Below, one piece after another: positions 4,347 through 35,625 of a stretch of 35,625 bases of DNA. Every line of letters begins with the position of its first letter. The stretch's first letter is position 1. The notes under the pieces are model-generated. The model was not told where the DNA came from. It searched no databases and worked only from the letters and a program-made list of their open reading frames with translations. The DNA is taken from positions 1 through 35,625 of IMG/VR virus record IMGVR_UViG_3300002168_000001. One strand, 5' to 3'. The position numbers were made by a program, and so were the translations under genes. The DNA comes from a virus.

Positions 4347-5030
4347 ATGATTGATAGAAATACAGAAACACCAATGACGCAAAACCCTTGTTATGTGCAG
4401 CCCTTTTCGGAAGTTTTCAATGAGGACTGCATACAGGTTATGAAGCGTTATCCTGACAAATTCTTTGACCTTGCAGTAGTTGACCCTCCTTATGGCATTG
4501 GAGCAAACAAAATGCAACTTGGCAATGGTAAACGAAAGATTTACAGAGGAGAAAATGACTGGGATAACTCAATACCTGCTGCTGAATATTGGCAGGAACT
4601 ATTCCGAGTATCTAAAAACCAAATTGTGTGGGGGGGCAATTATATGACCGAACACCTAAAGCCAACTTCGTCTTGGTTATTTTGGGACAAAGGAACTGGT
4701 GATAATGATTTTGCTGATGGAGAATTAGCGTGGACTTCATTTGGTGGTGCATTGCGAAAAATAACAAAGAGTTGGGTGGGAGCAAACGCAAAAGACGGAC
4801 TTGAACGAATACACCCCACGCAAAAGCCGATTTATTTATATGATTGGATTTTTGACAGATACTGCAAAGAAGGGGATTGGGTTTTAGATACTCATTTGGG
4901 GAGTGCCAGCAGTAGGATTTCAGCGAATAAAGCCAAGTTGCGTTTTGTTGGTTGTGAAATTGACACTAAATACTTTAAAGATGGAGAAACAAGGTTCAAA
5001 GAATTTGTCTCACAGTTGCGGCTCTTTTAG
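4347..5030 (+). CDS. DNA methyltransferase, beta-class N6A/N4C type (second paralog)
   Basis: The motifs VVDPPYGIG (motif IV), IHPTQKPIYLYDW and DTHLGSAS (motif I) appear in beta-class order. Confidence 0.85.
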   Translation: MIDRNTETPMTQNPCYVQPFSEVFNEDCIQVMKRYPDKFFDLAVVDPPYGIGANKMQLGNGKRKIYRGENDWDNSIPAAEYWQELFRVSKNQIVWGGNYMTEHLKPTSSWLFWDKGTGDNDFADGELAWTSFGGALRKITKSWVGANAKDGLERIHPTQKPIYLYDWIFDRYCKEGDWVLDTHLGSASSRISANKAKLRFVGCEIDTKYFKDGETRFKEFVSQLRLF

Positions 5031-9293: not shown

Positions 9294-9324
9294 TTGATTT
9301 ATAAATATTAATTTTGTATATTTG
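9294..9324 (+). promoter_or_regulatory. Bacteroidota-type promoter (TTG-N20-TAtaTTTG)
   Basis: ttg at 9294..9296 and tatatttg at 9317..9324, 22 nt upstream of the ATG at 9347. Confidence 0.5.
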
Positions 9325-9651: not shown

Positions 9652-10176
9652 ATGATAACAAAAGAGCAAATAATTGACATAGCAAGAGATGAACTTACAC
9701 CGATAGGATGGCATGAAGAACACGCTAAATACATTGACGGACTTGATGCCTTTGCAGAAAGGCTATTAAAATTATGCGACTGTAAAGATTTTAAAATAAA
9801 AGGAAATATGAGCGAAAAAGCAGAACACAGACAAGTATGTGATTATATAAGGACTCAATACCCGAATGCAATATTTAATACAGATGCGAGCGGTGTTAAA
9901 TTGACAACAGGTCAAGCGGTGCAAATGAAAAAATTAAGGTCTGGTAGAGGGTTTCCTGATATTGTTGTCTATGAGCCGCGTAATGGATATTATGGGCTTT
10001 TTATCGAGATGAAAAAAACGGGCGAGATTTTGTTTAAAAAGAATGGCGAGCCTAAAACAGAACACATTAAAGAACAAATTGAAATGTGCGAAATGTTAAT
10101 GAGCAGGAGGTATTATGCTATGATATGCTTGGGATTCGAGCATGCAAAAAAAATAATTGATTGGTATATGAAATAA
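9652..10176 (+). CDS. VRR-NUC domain nuclease (PD-(D/E)XK) with an N-terminal extension
   Basis: GRGFPDIVVY...GLFIEMKKTGE fits the PD...E.K motif. The segment EHIKEQIEMCEMLMSRRYYAMICLGFEHAKKIIDWY is typical of a VRR-NUC C-terminus. Confidence 0.65.
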   Translation: MITKEQIIDIARDELTPIGWHEEHAKYIDGLDAFAERLLKLCDCKDFKIKGNMSEKAEHRQVCDYIRTQYPNAIFNTDASGVKLTTGQAVQMKKLRSGRGFPDIVVYEPRNGYYGLFIEMKKTGEILFKKNGEPKTEHIKEQIEMCEMLMSRRYYAMICLGFEHAKKIIDWYMK

Positions 10177-10188
10177 TAACTATATTTG
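10157..10188 (+). promoter_or_regulatory. Bacteroidota-type promoter (TTG-N21-TAtaTTTG)
   Basis: ttg at 10157..10159 and tatatttg at 10181..10188, upstream of the ATG at 10209. Confidence 0.45.
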
Positions 10189-10902: not shown

Positions 10903-11988
10903 ATGAATAATCATAGATTTCCATATAAATGGACTTTAAAAGATGCCAACTTCACAAAGGATAAAGGCAAAGTATTTAGTTGTTTTGCTTGTGGTGGTGG
11001 TTCAACTATGGGTTATAAATTAGCTGGATTTGATGTGATAGGATGCAATGAGATTGACCCTAAAATGATTGAAGCATACAAGGTAAACCATAATCCAAAA
11101 TATGCCTATTTAGAGCCAATACAGACCTTTAAATTAAGAACTGATTTACCTGATGAATTATACCAATTAGATATTTTGGATGGTTCGCCGCCTTGCAGTA
11201 GCTTTTCAATGGCTGGCAATAGAGAAAAAGACTGGGGAAAAAATAAAGTTTTTAGGGAAGGACAAGCAATGCAAGTTTTAGATACTTTGTTTTTTGACTT
11301 TATTGATTTAGCAAAAAAGCTACAACCAAAAGTAGTGATTGCTGAAAACGTAAAAGGTTTGCTTTTAGGAAAAGCAAAAGCCTATGTAAGGCAAATATAC
11401 CGCGAGTTTGATTTAGCTGGGTATTATTGCCAACATTGGTTATTAGATGCTTCAAAAATGGGAGTGCCACAACGTAGGGAACGAGTGTTTTTTATTGCTT
11501 TACGTAAAGATTTGGCAAACCAATTTTTAGAACAAGTTGATATGTTTACCGTGTTGCCAAAATTAAAACTTGAATTTAATGAGCCACAAATAAACTTTGG
11601 AGAATTTTATGAAGCTGGAGTTGATGATAGACCCGCTTCACAAGGCAAAATGTATGAGTATTGGCAAAATAGAAAACAAGGTGACGAAAGTTTTTGTGAT
11701 ACAATAAAAAGAGTTGAAGGTGCTGAAAGATGCTTTACCAATAAATACCTTTACTCTGATATTGTTCCAATGACATACACAAGCAATTCAGATGTGATTT
11801 ACTTGTTTGATGAATACAGAAAGCCAAACAAAAAAGAAAGTTGCTGTATTGGCTCATACCCACAAGATTATAAATTTACTGGTGTGCAATACAATTATTT
11901 AATTGGAATGAGCGTTCCGCCTGTAATGACAGCAAACATAGCGACTGAAATTTATTCGCAATGGCTCTCAAAGTTGGAACGGTCTTAA
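10903..11988 (+). CDS. dcm: DNA (cytosine-5)-methyltransferase
   Basis: Motif I FSCFACGGGSTMGY, motif IV GSPPCSSFS, motif VI ENVKGLL, motif VIII QRRERVFFIA, motif X GMSVPPVM. Confidence 0.9.
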   Translation: MNNHRFPYKWTLKDANFTKDKGKVFSCFACGGGSTMGYKLAGFDVIGCNEIDPKMIEAYKVNHNPKYAYLEPIQTFKLRTDLPDELYQLDILDGSPPCSSFSMAGNREKDWGKNKVFREGQAMQVLDTLFFDFIDLAKKLQPKVVIAENVKGLLLGKAKAYVRQIYREFDLAGYYCQHWLLDASKMGVPQRRERVFFIALRKDLANQFLEQVDMFTVLPKLKLEFNEPQINFGEFYEAGVDDRPASQGKMYEYWQNRKQGDESFCDTIKRVEGAERCFTNKYLYSDIVPMTYTSNSDVIYLFDEYRKPNKKESCCIGSYPQDYKFTGVQYNYLIGMSVPPVMTANIATEIYSQWLSKLERS

Positions 11989-12085: not shown

Positions 12086-12116
12086 TTTGAAAATCAACTA
12101 AAATATACTATATTTG
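12086..12116 (+). promoter_or_regulatory. Bacteroidota-type promoter (TTTG-N19-TAtaTTTG)
   Basis: tttg at 12086..12089 and tatatttg at 12109..12116, just upstream of the ATG at 12121. Confidence 0.5.
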
Positions 12117-14648: not shown

Positions 14649-14681
14649 TTTGCTTTTTACTTACAGATTGTTATATATTTG
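14649..14681 (+). promoter_or_regulatory. Bacteroidota-type promoter (TTTG-N21-TAtaTTTG) upstream of the portal gene
   Basis: tttg at 14649..14652 and tatatttg at 14674..14681. Confidence 0.45.
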
Positions 14682-31681: not shown

Positions 31682-31743
31682 TTTAAATATTTTATACCTT
31701 ATATTTACAGCCTACGCACTTTTATAGGATTATTTTTTAGTTT

Positions 31744-31790
31744 ACCCCCGATTTTGTCGCCCGATAAAACGGGGGTTTTTAACTTTTTTT
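31744..31790 (+). terminator. Strong rho-independent terminator ending the late operon
   Basis: The hairpin ACCCCCG-a-TTTT-g-TCG cc CGA-t-AAAA-CGGGGGT (31744..31776) is followed by a T-run. Confidence 0.85.
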
Positions 31791-31877
31791 AACTTTTTTT
31801 CACTTTTTTCAACATTTTTTCATTAAAACTATTGACAAATCAAATTAATTATATTATATTTGTACTATAATAATTAA
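31786..31877 (+). promoter_or_regulatory. 92-bp perfect repeat, copy 1: phased T-tracts plus a strong Bacteroidota-type promoter (TTGACA-N20-TAtaTTTG)
   Basis: Identical to 32391..32482. ttgaca at 31832..31837 and tatatttg at 31855..31862. T-tracts recur about every 10 bp across 31781..31822. Confidence 0.75.
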
Positions 31878-31900
31878 CAAACAACTAAAAAATAGAAATT

Positions 31901-32044
31901 ATGAAAACAACAGAATCGAAAAATGGAAAGATGAAAACTCTAACGATTGAGCAAAAAGAACAAGCATTAAGAGATATTAATTTTTTCGTTGGTGGATTAA
32001 CAGATGAAGCGATTGAATATTACTATAATAAGTTGATATCGTAA
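31901..32044 (+). CDS. Small early hypothetical protein (47 aa)
   Basis: It is preceded by the conserved leader aactaaaaaatagaaattATGaaaa. The product is MKTTESKNGKMKTLTIEQKEQALRDINFFVGGLTDEAIEYYYNKLIS. Confidence 0.45.
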   Translation: MKTTESKNGKMKTLTIEQKEQALRDINFFVGGLTDEAIEYYYNKLIS

Positions 32045-32101
32045 AACGATAATATCATGGAAACACCATTTACACAGTCAAACAATTAAAAATTAGAAAT
32101 T

Positions 32102-32359
32102 ATGAAAACAGAATTAGAAAAATACACCAAAAAATTAAAAAGATTAAAAGGGAAGGAGTTGGTGTTGAAAATGAAAGAAATCCTTCCCAAAGGGAAATAC
32201 ATTGGTTATCCAGACTTTATTTTCATAAATGAAAAGGAAAAGGCGGTAAGGGTTAGTGAAGCCTCGCCAAGATGGGCAAATAATGCCAAAAAGGTGTTTA
32301 AAGAGTTGGGGTATAATCTCAATTTAGATGTCCGAAAAAAAGGAAGTATAATGCTATGA
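32102..32359 (+). CDS. Small basic early hypothetical protein
   Basis: 85-aa ORF with a leader-like upstream sequence (aattaaaaattagaaattATGaaaa). Confidence 0.6.
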   Translation: MKTELEKYTKKLKRLKGKELVLKMKEILPKGKYIGYPDFIFINEKEKAVRVSEASPRWANNAKKVFKELGYNLNLDVRKKGSIML

Positions 32360-32390
32360 GCAAACAGCAGCTTCCAGTAAGAGTTGATGG

Positions 32391-32482
32391 TTTTTAACTT
32401 TTTTTCACTTTTTTCAACATTTTTTCATTAAAACTATTGACAAATCAAATTAATTATATTATATTTGTACTATAATAATTAA
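32391..32482 (+). promoter_or_regulatory. 92-bp perfect repeat, copy 2 (the same promoter)
   Basis: Identical to 31786..31877. ttgaca at 32437..32442 and tatatttg at 32460..32467. Confidence 0.75.
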
Positions 32483-32506
32483 ACAAAAACTAAAAAATAA
32501 AACAAA

Positions 32507-32791
32507 ATGGAAACAACAAATTTAAAAAACAAAATCCAAAAAGAAGTAGAAATAAACATGATTGACTACTTAAGCCATGCAAAAACTGCAATTGCATTTA
32601 TCAACGAAGTTGTTAGCCCGCTTACTTCGGTAAGCGAAGAACAGGAGCAGGCAATAGGCGACATTCTCTGCCTTACTCAACAAGAGTGGGAGGAGGCAGA
32701 ATGCGATGCAGAGGGTCCAAATAAAGAGCAAGATGCTGCTCTTGATAAGATTATTGAAGATGCAGCTGCTGCCATTTCTGAACTTTTTTAA
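32507..32791 (+). CDS. Small, strongly acidic early protein
   Basis: 94 aa with 15 Glu, 6 Asp, 6 Lys and no Arg. It is the first gene after the second promoter copy. The C-terminal helix is DAALDKIIEDAAAAISELF. Confidence 0.65.
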   Translation: METTNLKNKIQKEVEINMIDYLSHAKTAIAFINEVVSPLTSVSEEQEQAIGDILCLTQQEWEEAECDAEGPNKEQDAALDKIIEDAAAAISELF

Positions 32792-32834
32792 AAAATCAAA
32801 ACCTATATTAATAAAAAAACTAAAAAATAATACT

Positions 32835-33257
32835 ATGAAAACAATGGAAAAAATTAATGCTAAATGGGTAGATGAAAACAACAACACATGGACTTCTTCC
32901 TTATACACTAAGGAAGAGGCAATTGAAATGAGTAAATCTCTTATCAATTGTCGGGATTGTTCGGATTGTCGGTATTGTCGAGATTGTCATGATTGTCATG
33001 ATTGTCGGTATTGTCGGTATTGTTCGGATTGCCGGAATTGTTCGGATTGTCGGAATTGCTATAATTGTGAGGGATGTCGGTATTGTTGGGGTTATCAGGG
33101 ATGCCGTGATTGCTATAATTGTGAGGGATGTCGTGATTGTAATGGGTGCATGGAGTGTAAGGATTGTGGTTGCTGTGAATATTGTGAGGGATGCCGTGAT
33201 TGCTATAATTGTGAGGGATGCCGTGATTGCTATAATTGTGAGGGATGCTGCTCTTGA
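32835..33257 (+). CDS. Cys-triplet-repeat protein: a 38-aa N-terminal domain followed by 102 aa with Cys at every third residue
   Basis: MKTMEKINAKWVDENNNTWTSSLYTKEEAIEMSKSLIN is followed by CRDCSDCRYCRDCHDCHDC...CEGCRDCYNCEGCCS. The leader motif lies upstream. The ATG at 32835 is preferred over 32706, which would overlap the previous gene. Confidence 0.65.
   Translation: MKTMEKINAKWVDENNNTWTSSLYTKEEAIEMSKSLINCRDCSDCRYCRDCHDCHDCRYCRYCSDCRNCSDCRNCYNCEGCRYCWGYQGCRDCYNCEGCRDCNGCMECKDCGCCEYCEGCRDCYNCEGCRDCYNCEGCCS
32949..33254. repeat. 9-bp-periodic coding tandem repeat (TGY-NNN-NNN, 34 units), including two perfect 27-bp units
   Basis: 33 of 34 consecutive codon triplets begin with TGT or TGC. 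The perfect tandem tgtgagggatgccgtgattgctataat occurs at 33183..33209 and 33210..33236. Confidence 0.9.
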
Positions 33258-33338
33258 TAAGATTATTGAAGATGCAGCAACCTCTATTGCCGAACTTTTT
33301 AAAAAAAAAAATTAAACAAAAACTAAAAAATAGAAATT

Positions 33339-33890
33339 ATGAAAAATTTAAAAATCACAATCGAAAATTTACAACAACTTAATCCATGCGAATCGGGATA
33401 CGAGTTCGCCCAATCTAAAAATTCTTTAATAGAAGCATGGGAAACGTGTGAAAGAGGCGATTTGATGCTTTGGTTTGCAAGTAAACTTGAGTGTCCAGTG
33501 GAACTATTGACCCTAGCAAAGGGGAAATGTGCTGAAACAGTTATTCATTTGATGAAAGACGAAAGAAGTCGCAAGGCGGTAAAAGCTGCCATTGATTTTG
33601 GTAATGGCGTTGCTTCACGTGAAGAATTAGATGCGGCTTCTGATGCTGCTCATGTTGCTGCTAAGGATGCTTTTGATTATGCTTTTGCAGCTTATGCTGC
33701 AGCCGCTTCGAATGCTGCTTATGCTGCTTATGCTGCTGCGAATGCTGCTTATGCAGCTGCTGCTTATGCTGCTTCTTATGCTTCTTCTGCTTCTGCTGCT
33801 GCTGCTGATGCTGCGAAAAAAGCAAACCAGCTTCAAACGGCTAACATCTGCAGAGAAGTGCTTACTGATTTTATAAAATCAAAACTATGA
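33339..33890 (+). CDS. Ala/Tyr-repeat protein: a Cys-containing N-terminal domain followed by a low-complexity alanine-rich helical repeat
   Basis: The N-terminus LNPCESGYEFAQ...AWETCERGDLMLWFASKL is followed by DAASDAAHVAAKDAFDYAFAAYAAAASNAAYAAYAAANAAYAAAAYAASYASSASAAAADAA. An identical 25-nt leader lies upstream. Confidence 0.65.
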   Translation: MKNLKITIENLQQLNPCESGYEFAQSKNSLIEAWETCERGDLMLWFASKLECPVELLTLAKGKCAETVIHLMKDERSRKAVKAAIDFGNGVASREELDAASDAAHVAAKDAFDYAFAAYAAAASNAAYAAYAAANAAYAAAAYAASYASSASAAAADAAKKANQLQTANICREVLTDFIKSKL

Positions 33891-33916
33891 AAAAATAATA
33901 TTAAAAAATAGAAATT

Positions 33917-34189
33917 ATGAAAAAAACACATCAAGACTATTTTAAAGCGGTCGAGTTCGCAAAAGAAACAACCGACAAAGTGATTGAAAAGCTCGAACAA
34001 ATAGCAATCGAGAATAAAATAGAAGCGAAAATCACAACAGAATACATTGCGGAACGAAACGCATTCGTAATTGAAGTTAGCAATATGACTAACTACCATA
34101 TTAACGAAGTCGCAAAAGTAATGCTTGGGAAACGAGCGCAATCGACTTCGATGAAATCAGGCTATATTGTAATTGATATAAACGAGTAA
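33917..34189 (+). CDS. Small early hypothetical protein
   Basis: 90-aa ORF with the conserved leader upstream. Confidence 0.6.
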   Translation: MKKTHQDYFKAVEFAKETTDKVIEKLEQIAIENKIEAKITTEYIAERNAFVIEVSNMTNYHINEVAKVMLGKRAQSTSMKSGYIVIDINE

Positions 34190-34191
34190 TT

Positions 34192-34398
34192 ATGTACGGA
34201 TTCACAACTGTAGAGGAAGACTTAGCTAAATATATGCAAGAGCTTGAAGAAAGAGAAAAAGAAGACATCGAATATTACAGCGAAGAAATCGAATGTGCTG
34301 AATGCGGAGAAACACACGCACGTGGCGACATGAACGAAATCTGGTTACATTGGATTTGCGATAAGTGTAAAAATGAGCATTTCCCGAGAAAGAAATAA
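34192..34398 (+). CDS. Small acidic zinc-ribbon protein
   Basis: 68 aa with an acidic N-terminal half, then CAEC...CDKC. Confidence 0.6.
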   Translation: MYGFTTVEEDLAKYMQELEEREKEDIEYYSEEIECAECGETHARGDMNEIWLHWICDKCKNEHFPRKK

Positions 34399-34472
34399 CT
34401 TCCTTGTATGTACACTATAATAATTAACAAACTAAAAATGAGCAATATAATAACAACAGAAACGCAAATAAA

Positions 34473-34883
34473 ATGAAAGACATAAACAAAATAATCAGAA
34501 TAGTAGAAAAACACGCAGGTTTCTCAATCAGAAACAAAGGGCGTAAACGTGAACTTGTTGAATACAGACAAATAGCGCAAGAACTCTGCATAAATTACAC
34601 AAATTGCAGCCTTAAGCAAATAGGTTACGCAACAAATCAAGACCATTCAACGGTAATATACGCACGTAAGCAAGTAGAGATATTAATGTGCAACAAAGAA
34701 TTTGAGCGCAAATATAAAGAAATTGAAAAAATCGTAATCAAAGAGTTAAACACGAACGCAGAAAAACGCACTCAAATGATTCACGACCTCGAACAGCGGA
34801 TTTGGGGAGCAGAACACCCCGAACATTTATCCCAAATGAAATCACGTCTCGGGCATTTACTTTACGCAGAATTACAGGATTAA
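34473..34883 (+). CDS. Stand-alone DnaA domain IV-like (Bac_DnaA_C) helix-turn-helix protein
   Basis: GRKRELVEYRQIAQELCINYTNCSLKQIGYATNQDHSTVIYARKQVE aligns with E. coli DnaA [48 protein letters not shown]. No AAA+ domain is present. Confidence 0.8.
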   Translation: MKDINKIIRIVEKHAGFSIRNKGRKRELVEYRQIAQELCINYTNCSLKQIGYATNQDHSTVIYARKQVEILMCNKEFERKYKEIEKIVIKELNTNAEKRTQMIHDLEQRIWGAEHPEHLSQMKSRLGHLLYAELQD

Positions 34884-34925
34884 TATGAAAACAGAAATCG
34901 TAAATAATAAACACAGTAAAAGGAT

Positions 34926-35267
34926 ATGAAAAACAAAATTATCAAAATTGCAGATGACCTCCGAAACGGAGTGATAGAAACAGAAACCGCACGAAGCCTT
35001 TTATTGGGTTTATTTAGTGTTAGTGGCTGCTTATTGGTCAATGCTAAAAAAGGAGATTATTTAAAATGTACAAAGGTTTATTCTCAATCAAAAAAATATA
35101 CAGTTGGTAAAATGTACCAAATAATAAATATTGAAATGATTGATGTTATTCATTTATGGAAAAAAGAACCACACATAGTAATAAGAGATGACAATAATAA
35201 ATTAACAAGAATAAATCAAATAAGTGGAATAAGTTTCACTGAGTTTGATGTTTTAAGTTGCCACTAA
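34926..35267 (+). CDS. Hypothetical protein
   Basis: 113-aa ORF. No motif recognised. Confidence 0.55.
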   Translation: MKNKIIKIADDLRNGVIETETARSLLLGLFSVSGCLLVNAKKGDYLKCTKVYSQSKKYTVGKMYQIINIEMIDVIHLWKKEPHIVIRDDNNKLTRINQISGISFTEFDVLSCH

Positions 35268-35278
35268 AGAATGGTTTT

Positions 35279-35625
35279 ATGAAATATAGTGGATTTGAAA
35301 AAGAGGAGCATTTCGATAGAATTAGCTTTTATAACGGTGATTGTATGGATTTATTAAAACAAACACCTGATAAATACTACGACCTTGCTTTGGTTGACCC
35401 GCCTTATGGAATTGGGATTAGCTCCAACCCTGTAAGACAACGGCACGAAAAAAAAGACTGGGACAATGCGATACCTACACACGAATATTTTGAGCAACTA
35501 TTTAGGGTAAGCAAAAATCAAATAATTTGGGGTGGTAATTATTTCCCATTAAAACCAACGCAATGCTTTTATATTTGGGATAAAAAACAACCGCACGACT
35601 TTAGCCTTGCAATGTGTGAAATGGC
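35279..35625 (+). CDS. DNA methyltransferase, beta-class N6A/N4C type: N-terminal part, continuing at 98..401 after the circular junction
   Basis: The ATG at 35279 is followed by FYNGDCMDLL and LVDPPYGIG (motif IV). It is in frame with 84..401 through the 97-bp overlap. The reconstructed gene is 651 nt (216 aa). Confidence 0.85.
   Translation, partial: MKYSGFEKEEHFDRISFYNGDCMDLLKQTPDKYYDLALVDPPYGIGISSNPVRQRHEKKDWDNAIPTHEYFEQLFRVSKNQIIWGGNYFPLKPTQCFYIWDKKQPHDFSLAMCEM
35529..35625. repeat. Terminal overlap copy B, identical to 1..97
   Basis: 97/97 identity by direct comparison. Confidence 0.95.

Follow-up and report, generated by a model that had tools for sequence, protein, structure and literature searches.

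The stretch of DNA analysed here, referred to as the window, comprises the 35,625 nt of the IMG/VR virus record IMGVR_UViG_3300002168_000001. Its ends overlap by 97 nt (1-97 corresponds to 35529-35625), which means that the genome is circular and that the assembly, of about 35,528 bp (35.5 kb), is complete. All called genes of this phage are located on the + strand, to which the coordinates below refer. The subject of this report is the interval 31682-35278, which in this small siphovirus separates the end of the late operon from the replication genes. It contains nine small genes (g1-g9) followed by a gene for an N6 DNA methyltransferase. A preliminary description had regarded the interval as a candidate host-takeover or counter-defence island built from repeats. 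It had counted about ten small genes: the cluster is there, but the number is nine. The proteins singled out in that description were all found, namely the acidic g3, the cysteine-repeat protein g4, the Ala/Tyr-rich g5, g7 with its CxxC...CxxC arrangement, and g8 with the domain PF08299. A public contig of 35,669 bp and three more contigs from biogas-fermenter samples matched the window at 100%. Since several independent public assemblies are identical, the repeats of the interval are not an assembly artefact.

The interval lies behind a late terminator, as had been proposed. The intrinsic terminator closing the late operon (31744-31776) consists of a GC-rich hairpin of -19.6 kcal/mol followed by a U-run; its z-score is -4.1, and none of 200 shuffled sequences was as stable. 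Two full promoter modules follow, one upstream of g1 (31786-31897) and one upstream of g3 (32391-32502). They are 96% identical over 112 nt, and the similarity reaches 139 nt at 92% (promoter/leader copies 31786-31923 and 32391-32528). Both carry TTGACA-17-TATATT (11 of 12 matches), which can also be read as the Bacteroidota form TTG-N20-TATATTTG. The putative promoters P1 (31832-31862) and P2 (32437-32467) thus show the elements expected of a Bacteroidota sigma-A promoter: a -33 TTG and a -7 TAnnTTTG, 19-21 nt apart, in intergenic DNA. Each is preceded by T-tracts phased at a period of 10 nt, with 4.5 units in front of P1 (31776-31822) and 3.5 units in front of P2 (32391-32427). The preliminary description spoke of two or three copies of one strong promoter. 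Two stand, whereas the supposed third copy (34393-34432, 78% identity) comprises only the transcribed leader part and lacks both the -33 and the -7 element. In the whole genome the pattern TTG-N19-21-TAnnTTTG occurred seven times on the + strand and three times on the - strand, compared to 0.57 in shuffled sequences. Five of the seven + strand matches fell in intergenic DNA, which makes up 6.6% of the genome. A search of IMG/VR with the promoter pattern gave 0 matches.

Bacteroidota-type promoter motifs were also seen upstream of genes at 9294-9324, 10157-10188, 12087-12116 and 14650-14681, several of them followed by leaders of the AACTAAAA type; these are likely to be middle or late promoters. 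The spacer of 125 nt in front of the gene for a 401-aa protein (402-526) contains TACATTTG, a piece of the P1/P2 sequence (AAATCAAATTAAT) and a copy of the leader, and is a weaker relative of the promoter module.

All genes from g1 to g6 are preceded by a variant of one near-identical, A-rich leader, (A)ACTAAAAAATAGAAATT-ATG-AAAA, which lacks a Shine-Dalgarno sequence. The six reiterated leaders reported previously were therefore found again. The leader 20-mer occurs four times, compared to 0.2 times expected, and none of 100 shuffles reached four. In IMG/VR the same 20-mer gave more than 119 single matches, a number consistent with chance in AT-rich DNA and hence uninformative. Promoter elements (-33/-7) are confined to the cassettes before g1 and g3 and do not occur before g2, g4, g5 or g6. 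Folding energies of the intergenic leaders lie between 0 and -3.7 kcal/mol and do not surpass those of shuffled sequences, and this folding revealed no hairpin terminators between the early genes. Given unstructured leaders and the absence of intergenic terminators, the two promoters probably feed one long message. There are leader-like cassettes elsewhere in the genome too, namely at 527, 10459 and 13397 as well as following other promoters. The leader is the general translation start of this phage and is best conserved in the early interval. The interval is thus indeed built from repeated cassettes, as claimed, but their leaders are not specific to it.

A peculiar complement of the leaders is found at the other side of the terminator. 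The last 24 nt of the late 3' untranslated region (31720-31743), directly 5' of the hairpin and designated here the anti-leader, are complementary to the early leaders. The complementarity reaches 92% with the leader and start codon of g4 (32817-32840); the sequence was contrasted also with 32487-32500 and with the remaining leaders. The only exact copy of the leader core AACTAAAAAAT on the minus strand lies within the anti-leader. Predicted duplexes of the anti-leader with the leaders of g1-g6 have a mean energy of -14.0 kcal/mol, as opposed to -9.65 ± 2.75 kcal/mol for the other 36 genes and -8.1 ± 1.65 kcal/mol for shuffled untranslated regions. None of 300 shuffles was as low, and the g1-g6 duplexes are about 3.5 standard deviations stronger than those formed with shuffled untranslated regions. 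These energies were calculated from the window sequence alone, the spot being covered by none of the relatives. One possible role of the anti-leader is antisense silencing, in which late or read-through transcripts would pair with the early leaders; another is the insulation of read-through transcripts. It could equally be the relic of an inverted cassette.

The second promoter module leads into g3 (32507-32791), which encodes an acidic protein of 94 aa with a pI of 4.05 and a net charge of -15. It belongs to a small family of four-helix proteins, 34 representatives of which share the motif W..AECD.EG.T.EQD..LD.IIE. The alignment of the family was too diverse for locus searching. The AlphaFold2 (AF2) model of g3 consists of four helices with a predicted local distance difference test score (pLDDT) of 95. 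A fold search with this model returned nothing at E < 1, and no Pfam match was obtained at E ≤ 0.1. One weak PADLOC match of g3 to PtuA (E 0.0043) was judged spurious; PADLOC covers defence, not anti-defence, proteins.

The next gene, g4 (32835-33257), encodes 140 aa, 35 of which are cysteines, and matches phrog_15341 at 9.8e-26. Homologues of g4 have a three-part structure (alignment A2): an N-domain, CxxCxx repeats in variable number and, at the C-terminus, a domain of some 85 aa (NPQRYTT..IGSRN.QTTFYW...VCGCF). The g4 of the window has the N-domain but ends inside the (CxxCxx)n repeats, without the C-terminal domain of its family. The family is represented in Campylobacter and Flavobacterium phages and in the replication regions of temperate phages. 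One homologue carries LPD28 in place of the usual C-terminal domain; LPD28 is a domain of polyvalent conflict proteins (PMC5512222). Public gene calls give an open reading frame in an alternative frame at 32989-33315 (108 aa, MIVMIVGIVGIV...), which we rejected as a real gene. It is the cysteine-rich frame that is real, because it has a conserved N-domain, the phrog_15341 match and 51 homologues. The rejected frame ends in a g3-like peptide, DAALDKIIEDAATSIAELF, because there the repeat described in the following is read in frame.

The preliminary description had noted a recombination scar between neighbouring genes, and this scar could be delimited. A sequence of 64 nt, comprising the last 19 codons of g3, its stop codon and 4 more nt (32732-32795), recurs as a direct repeat with 88% identity at the end of g4 (33244-33307). 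The second copy is a remnant of the 3' end of another g3-type gene and is out of frame with g4. Its similarity to g3 starts exactly at GATGC, which marks the breakpoint. In the related contig L280 a homologue of g3 (66% aa identity) is followed directly by a homologue of g5 (65%), with one leader between them. Since g3 stands immediately beside g5 in L280, g4 is an insertion in the window; it is flanked by the g3 3'-end repeat plus a leader. The simplest history would be that a full-length g4 recombined illegitimately, within its Cys repeats, with the 3' end of another g3-type gene located in front of g5.

Eight relatives were found through g8, g9 and g5, all of them partial (L005, L006, L207, L210, L211, L212, L213 and L280). 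Rapid gene turnover rather than a conserved gene content had been expected for this region, and the relatives bear this out: in the surroundings of g8 and g5 their genes are arranged in seven or more different ways. While the window has g7, g8, g9, methyltransferase, p401 (the 401-aa protein) and Erf, the order in L005 is g7, methyltransferase, g8, unknown genes and Erf. L006 has three unrelated small genes, g8 and a different methyltransferase. L207 and L212 share the order g7, a 98-aa gene, g8, an SNF2-like helicase and a 337-aa methyltransferase. g8 is followed by a 102-aa gene and Erf in L210 and by a mosaic methyltransferase in L211. L213 proceeds from a late tail gene through a LAGLIDADG homing endonuclease to g8 and is devoid of DUF5675, the amidohydrolase and g1-g7. 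L280 contains g3, g5, an 83-aa gene, four methyltransferases and a remnant of g8. In five of these contigs (L006, L207, L210, L211 and L212) a leader cassette lies directly after the g8 stop codon, at the point where the gene content diverges, although the sample is small. Two details of the relatives are worth recording. The homing endonuclease of L213 (868-1824), which replaces DUF5675, the amidohydrolase and g1-g7, lies behind a Bacteroidota-type promoter of its own. The g8 remnant of L280 (3558-3698) consists of 141 nt of the 3' end (91% nucleotide identity) between two methyltransferase genes, from which it follows that g8 itself can be lost or replaced.

Other anchors were less productive. 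The Erf-like protein gave 80 loci, of which only L005 had anything else in common with the window, and Erf itself is therefore a mobile module. No relatives were found with the amidohydrolase as anchor. The families of g3, g4 and g5 did not co-occur in other elements, except for g3 and g5 in the one close relative L280. Since the three families are not inherited jointly, nothing points to a multi-gene system.

A conspicuous case of an exchanged single gene is g9 (34926-35267, 113 aa), a single-gene mobile cassette. A patch of 362 nt (34906-35267), which starts about 20 nt before the ATG and ends with the stop codon, recurs in the IMG/VR contigs L277 (3982-4342; 93% nucleotide identity) and L278 (2011-2376; about 92%). 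Both phages are otherwise unrelated. The g9 protein is 90-95% identical across different phages. In the window g9 lies directly before the N6 methyltransferase gene, and in L277 a C5 methyltransferase is encoded two genes downstream of g9.

g5 (33339-33890) encodes 183 aa, including 48 alanines and 8 tyrosines. It is composed of a helical, cysteine-containing N-domain, a variable Ala/Tyr/Asp linker and a C-terminal helix. Its family is very large, with more than 1051 clusters and no Pfam domain. The conserved features of the N-domain are C17, C37, RGDW, C64 and HLM.D.RS (alignment A1). The Ala/Tyr/Asp segment differs greatly in length between members, and the C-terminal helix ARKENQLQTANICRE is again conserved. 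With variable repeat numbers in the families of g4 and g5, the idea of expandable low-complexity proteins found support. Four cysteines of g5 (C17, C37, C64 and C171), located in the N-domain and the C-terminal helix, are nearly invariant, which suggests a metal site or a disulfide clamp joining the two conserved parts around the variable Ala/Tyr insert. The AF2 model is all-helical (pLDDT 79). The fold search gave no PDB match at E < 1, and a profile search of PDB sequences gave none. Members of the family occur in contigs of metagenome-assembled genomes (MAGs) from many phyla, in the neighbourhood of small genes, helicases, methyltransferases, RecT and integrases. In about 60 loci inspected the neighbours were generic early and recombination genes. 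With g5 as query, blastn also picked out Salmonella phage 9NA, Caulobacter phage Cr30 and others; these were not counted as homologues, because the matches reflect GCT-rich low-complexity DNA and tblastn of the same collection misses these phages. g3, g4 and g5 represent real, uncharacterised protein families.

g8 (34473-34883) encodes 136 aa and can be described as a stand-alone DnaA domain IV with a C-terminal extension. The match to PF08299 covers the whole 69-position model (E 4.8e-15; 55.8 bits, cut-off 31.5), and PDB entry 3pvp was matched at 1e-8. The motif NQDHSTVIYA retains D, H, T and V of the DnaA signature RDHTTVLHA, with S replacing T and Y replacing H, in a comparison based on the E. 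coli numbering. g8 is not a full-length DnaA, since it covers only positions 348-435 of the 437-position model TIGR00362 (41 bits, cut-off 344). Probably g8 is a DNA binder of the DnaA-box type and acts as a phage regulator, as an origin protein or as a competitor of host DnaA. The phage genome contains no cluster of DnaA boxes: TTWTNCACA and TTATCCACA (one mismatch) gave 12 and 15 scattered sites, respectively. For lack of such a cluster no target of g8 can be named. A homologue in a Tenacibaculum phage (Gundel_1) bears the annotation 'replication initiation protein'. HTVC010P-type pelagiphages also carry stand-alone DnaA domain IV genes in their early regions, and a role in replication has been proposed for these (PMC8477408). 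The neighbouring g7 (34192-34398) encodes an acidic, zinc-ribbon-like protein of 68 aa, whose matches to zinc ribbons are all below threshold. Its homologues in L005 and L207 show 70-75% aa identity, whereas the g8 of relatives with a g7 of this divergence keeps 92-97% identity. Between relatives with 96-97% identity in g8, g7 likewise reaches only 70-75%.

The remaining small genes are g1 (31901-32044, 47 aa), g2 (32102-32359, 85 aa, basic with a pI of 10) and g6 (33917-34189, 90 aa). No relatives of g1 were detected in Pfam, PHROGs and NCBIfam. g2 had no match in these libraries or in GenBank phages, nor in IMG/VR, where the search was for close relatives only. Its motif GYPDF...EKEK was considered as a remnant of a PD-(D/E)xK nuclease but received no profile support. 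For g6 no close relative was detected in the libraries searched, including Pfam, PHROGs and NCBIfam. As the preliminary description had anticipated, none of g1-g9 resembled a characterised anti-defence family: Ocr, ArdA, anti-CRISPR and other anti-defence families, as represented in Pfam, PHROGs and NCBIfam, gave no match.

Downstream of the interval the genes are arranged in the order N6 DNA methyltransferase (216 aa; 35279-35625, continuing across the circular junction to 401), p401, Erf-like annealing protein, exonuclease, DUF3127, second methyltransferase, Lin1244_N, primase-helicase, NinB, resolvase and third methyltransferase. The late genes comprise terminase, portal, major head protein, a tape measure protein of 1063 aa, tail-fibre-like proteins, DUF5675 and the amidohydrolase, after which the terminator follows. 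The genome of about 35.5 kb thus carries three DNA methyltransferase genes (35279-401, 4347-5030 and 10903-11988). The third has 80-82% nucleotide identity to methyltransferase genes of Flavobacterium phages and of a 'Rhodobacteraceae phage'. Relatives have other methyltransferases at the same place as the window, L280 as many as four. The orphan methyltransferases adjoining the early genes probably protect the phage DNA from restriction by self-methylation. Rfam and tRNA scans of the window found nothing real, a SNORD36 match (E 0.22) being due to chance.

DNA and protein matches to cultured phages were few and concerned Flavobacterium, Tenacibaculum and Bacteroides phages. Among genomes, MAGs of Dysgonamonadaceae, Tannerella, Rikenellaceae and Prevotellaceae had the closest homologues of g5. 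Shine-Dalgarno sequences are nearly absent from the genes of the phage, and starts without them are the rule in Bacteroidia (PMC6847099). Promoters, translation starts, phage matches and g5 homologues taken together make the Bacteroidota the most likely host group.

How can these observations be reconciled? We consider it likely that the interval is the promoter-proximal, immediate-early end of a single transcription programme, made up as a mosaic of independently mobile accessory genes and not of a co-inherited system. Its position at the start of the phage's only transcription direction, already noted in the preliminary description, agrees with this. Past the late terminator, two tandem promoters of the host sigma-A type would fire into a stretch without internal terminator. 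The phased T-tracts would form curved DNA and thereby activate each promoter, and transcription would run from g1 through g9 and on into the genes for methyltransferase, recombination and replication. g1-g6 would be translated from the leader they have in common, which is unstructured, A-rich and free of a Shine-Dalgarno sequence, a start of the type used by Bacteroidia ribosomes. At the points where gene content switches, the leader cassette might double as a homology patch by which single genes are inserted, lost or exchanged. In this respect the locus appears to be a typical fast-evolving, hyperplastic phage early region with mobile regulatory cassettes, for which an anti-defence reading is plausible. 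Only for g8 and the adjacent methyltransferases can a function be read from the sequence; some of the other products may act on the host or its defences. It is possible, but doubtful, that at least one uncharacterised family (g5, g3 and g9 are the candidates) is a new family of counter-defence proteins or host inhibitors and that, in addition, the anti-leader at the late 3' end silences the early leaders by pairing.

Several points weigh against the mosaic. The term 'early' is based on position and promoter consensus only, the effect of T-tracts on promoter strength is assumed from general knowledge, and the Bacteroidota host is itself deduced. The relatives, short contigs from metagenomes with lengths of 1.2-18 kb, may be chimeric. 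Most of them were found via g8, so the apparent constancy of g8 is partly ascertainment bias, and L280 retains no more of it than the 141-nt remnant. The proposal that leaders serve as recombination substrates depends on a handful of junctions, while the one breakpoint that was mapped, between g4 and the g3 remnant, is a 5-nt microhomology within coding sequence and not in a leader.

The interval could instead be a dedicated host-takeover or counter-defence island containing at least one undescribed anti-defence system of cooperating parts, as the preliminary description had suspected. A first-expressed position behind tandem strong promoters, small genes without known relatives and rapid turnover would all suit such an island. 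High acidity is a property of DNA-mimic anti-restriction proteins, and g3 combines a charge of -15 with a confident four-helix model. Methyltransferases recur nearby (after g9, as the C5 enzyme in L277, and fourfold after the g5 homologue in L280), g9 is exchanged horizontally, and the LPD28 homologue of g4 bears a domain of polyvalent conflict proteins (PMC5512222). Yet no product resembles a characterised anti-defence family represented in Pfam, PHROGs or NCBIfam and neither g3 nor g5 has a structural match, so that a role in takeover or counter-defence is left without support. The notion of cooperating parts fares no better: the g3, g4 and g5 families do not co-occur beyond close relatives, g5-family members have generic neighbours, L213 passes from late genes to g8 without g1-g7, and g4 is truncated. 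We regard an island of this kind as unlikely.

A rather slim chance is given to the view that the interval is a regulatory or replication-control region, in which g8, perhaps together with g7, sets the switch from early to middle expression or marks the origin, the other products being adaptors of the replisome or of host RNA polymerase. In favour of this, the DnaA domain IV of g8 is genuine, g8 is better conserved than g7, and the two genes are adjacent or nearly so in the window, L005 and L207; moreover, a part in replication has been proposed for the counterparts of g8 in pelagiphages (PMC8477408) and is annotated for the homologue in the Tenacibaculum phage. On the other hand, such a region would be expected neither to lack a DnaA-box cluster nor to have relatives like L280 with only a 3' remnant of g8. 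Initiation could also be served by the separate Lin1244_N protein and the primase-helicase, and g1-g6 and g9 would be left unexplained. Finally, the region might consist mostly of evolutionary debris, i.e. selfish or decaying fragments in a place that tolerates insertions, with little function for the phage. The truncated g4, the persisting 64-nt fragment of a second g3-type gene, the degenerate third promoter module, the absence of g1-g7 from L213, and the presence of gene remnants and homing endonucleases in the corresponding position of relatives would be in line with decay. But all nine reading frames are intact and their leaders well formed, the g3, g4 and g5 families have motifs conserved over many elements, the AF2 models of g3 and g5 are confident, and g9 is maintained at 90-95% aa identity in different phages. 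Debris as the main content of the interval is therefore very improbable.

Early accessory regions are the source of many anti-defence and host-shut-off proteins in model phages, and little of this kind is known for phages of Bacteroidota. The locus offers a compact and well-delimited set of candidates with three real families, one of which is very large and occurs in many phyla. In addition, it clearly exemplifies single-gene swapping at regulatory cassettes, in a host group with unusual promoters and no Shine-Dalgarno sequences. The truncation of g4, the adjacency of g3 and g5 in L280, the gene orders of the relatives, the g9 cassette, the leaders at switch points and the assignment of g3, g4 and g5 to families that do not co-occur elsewhere are new in this analysis. 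What the interval provides is a list of candidates and a case of modular evolution, not the discovery of a new system.

Comparison with known early regions places the locus more precisely. In coliphage T7 the tandem promoters A1-A3 are followed by the gene for the acidic DNA mimic Ocr. The phage described here likewise has tandem strong promoters for host RNA polymerase at the start of the genome and a small acidic protein among the first products, but g3 showed no similarity to Ocr, either in sequence (Pfam, E ≤ 0.1) or in the fold search. The host-takeover module of the Bacillus phage SPO1 is driven by several strong host-polymerase promoters. Of that layout, a small-gene cluster in first position behind several such promoters, the interval shows the position and the promoter consensus only. 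Like the SPO1 module it consists of promoter-proximal small early genes, mostly without recognisable family, but there are 26 genes in SPO1 and nine here, and host shut-off by SPO1 has been demonstrated experimentally (PMC6873191). No homology to SPO1 products was found. With the HTVC010P-type pelagiphages (PMC8477408) and the Tenacibaculum phage Gundel_1 the phage shares a short early-region protein made up of the DNA-binding domain of DnaA, in a genome without a DNA polymerase of its own. g8 differs from the other phage DnaA domain IV proteins by its C-terminal extension of about 60 aa and at two positions of the DnaA signature. The T4-type phages have PeSL (early promoter and stem-loop) cassettes, short regulatory repeats between the small genes of variable, hyperplastic regions, and close relatives differ by insertions, deletions and replacements at these cassettes or beside them (PMC2839356, PMC4122927). 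Here, too, short repeated cassettes (six leaders and two promoter modules) lie between small genes, and the modules are single genes. But a PeSL combines an early promoter with a stem-loop terminator, whereas only two of the present cassettes have a promoter and none has a stem-loop. The part shared by the cassettes is a translation leader, and the setting is a 35-kb siphovirus with Bacteroidota-like promoters and no Shine-Dalgarno sequences. The PeSL system thus appears to be the nearest described analogue of the locus, which resembles it in its modular organisation without being a strict member.

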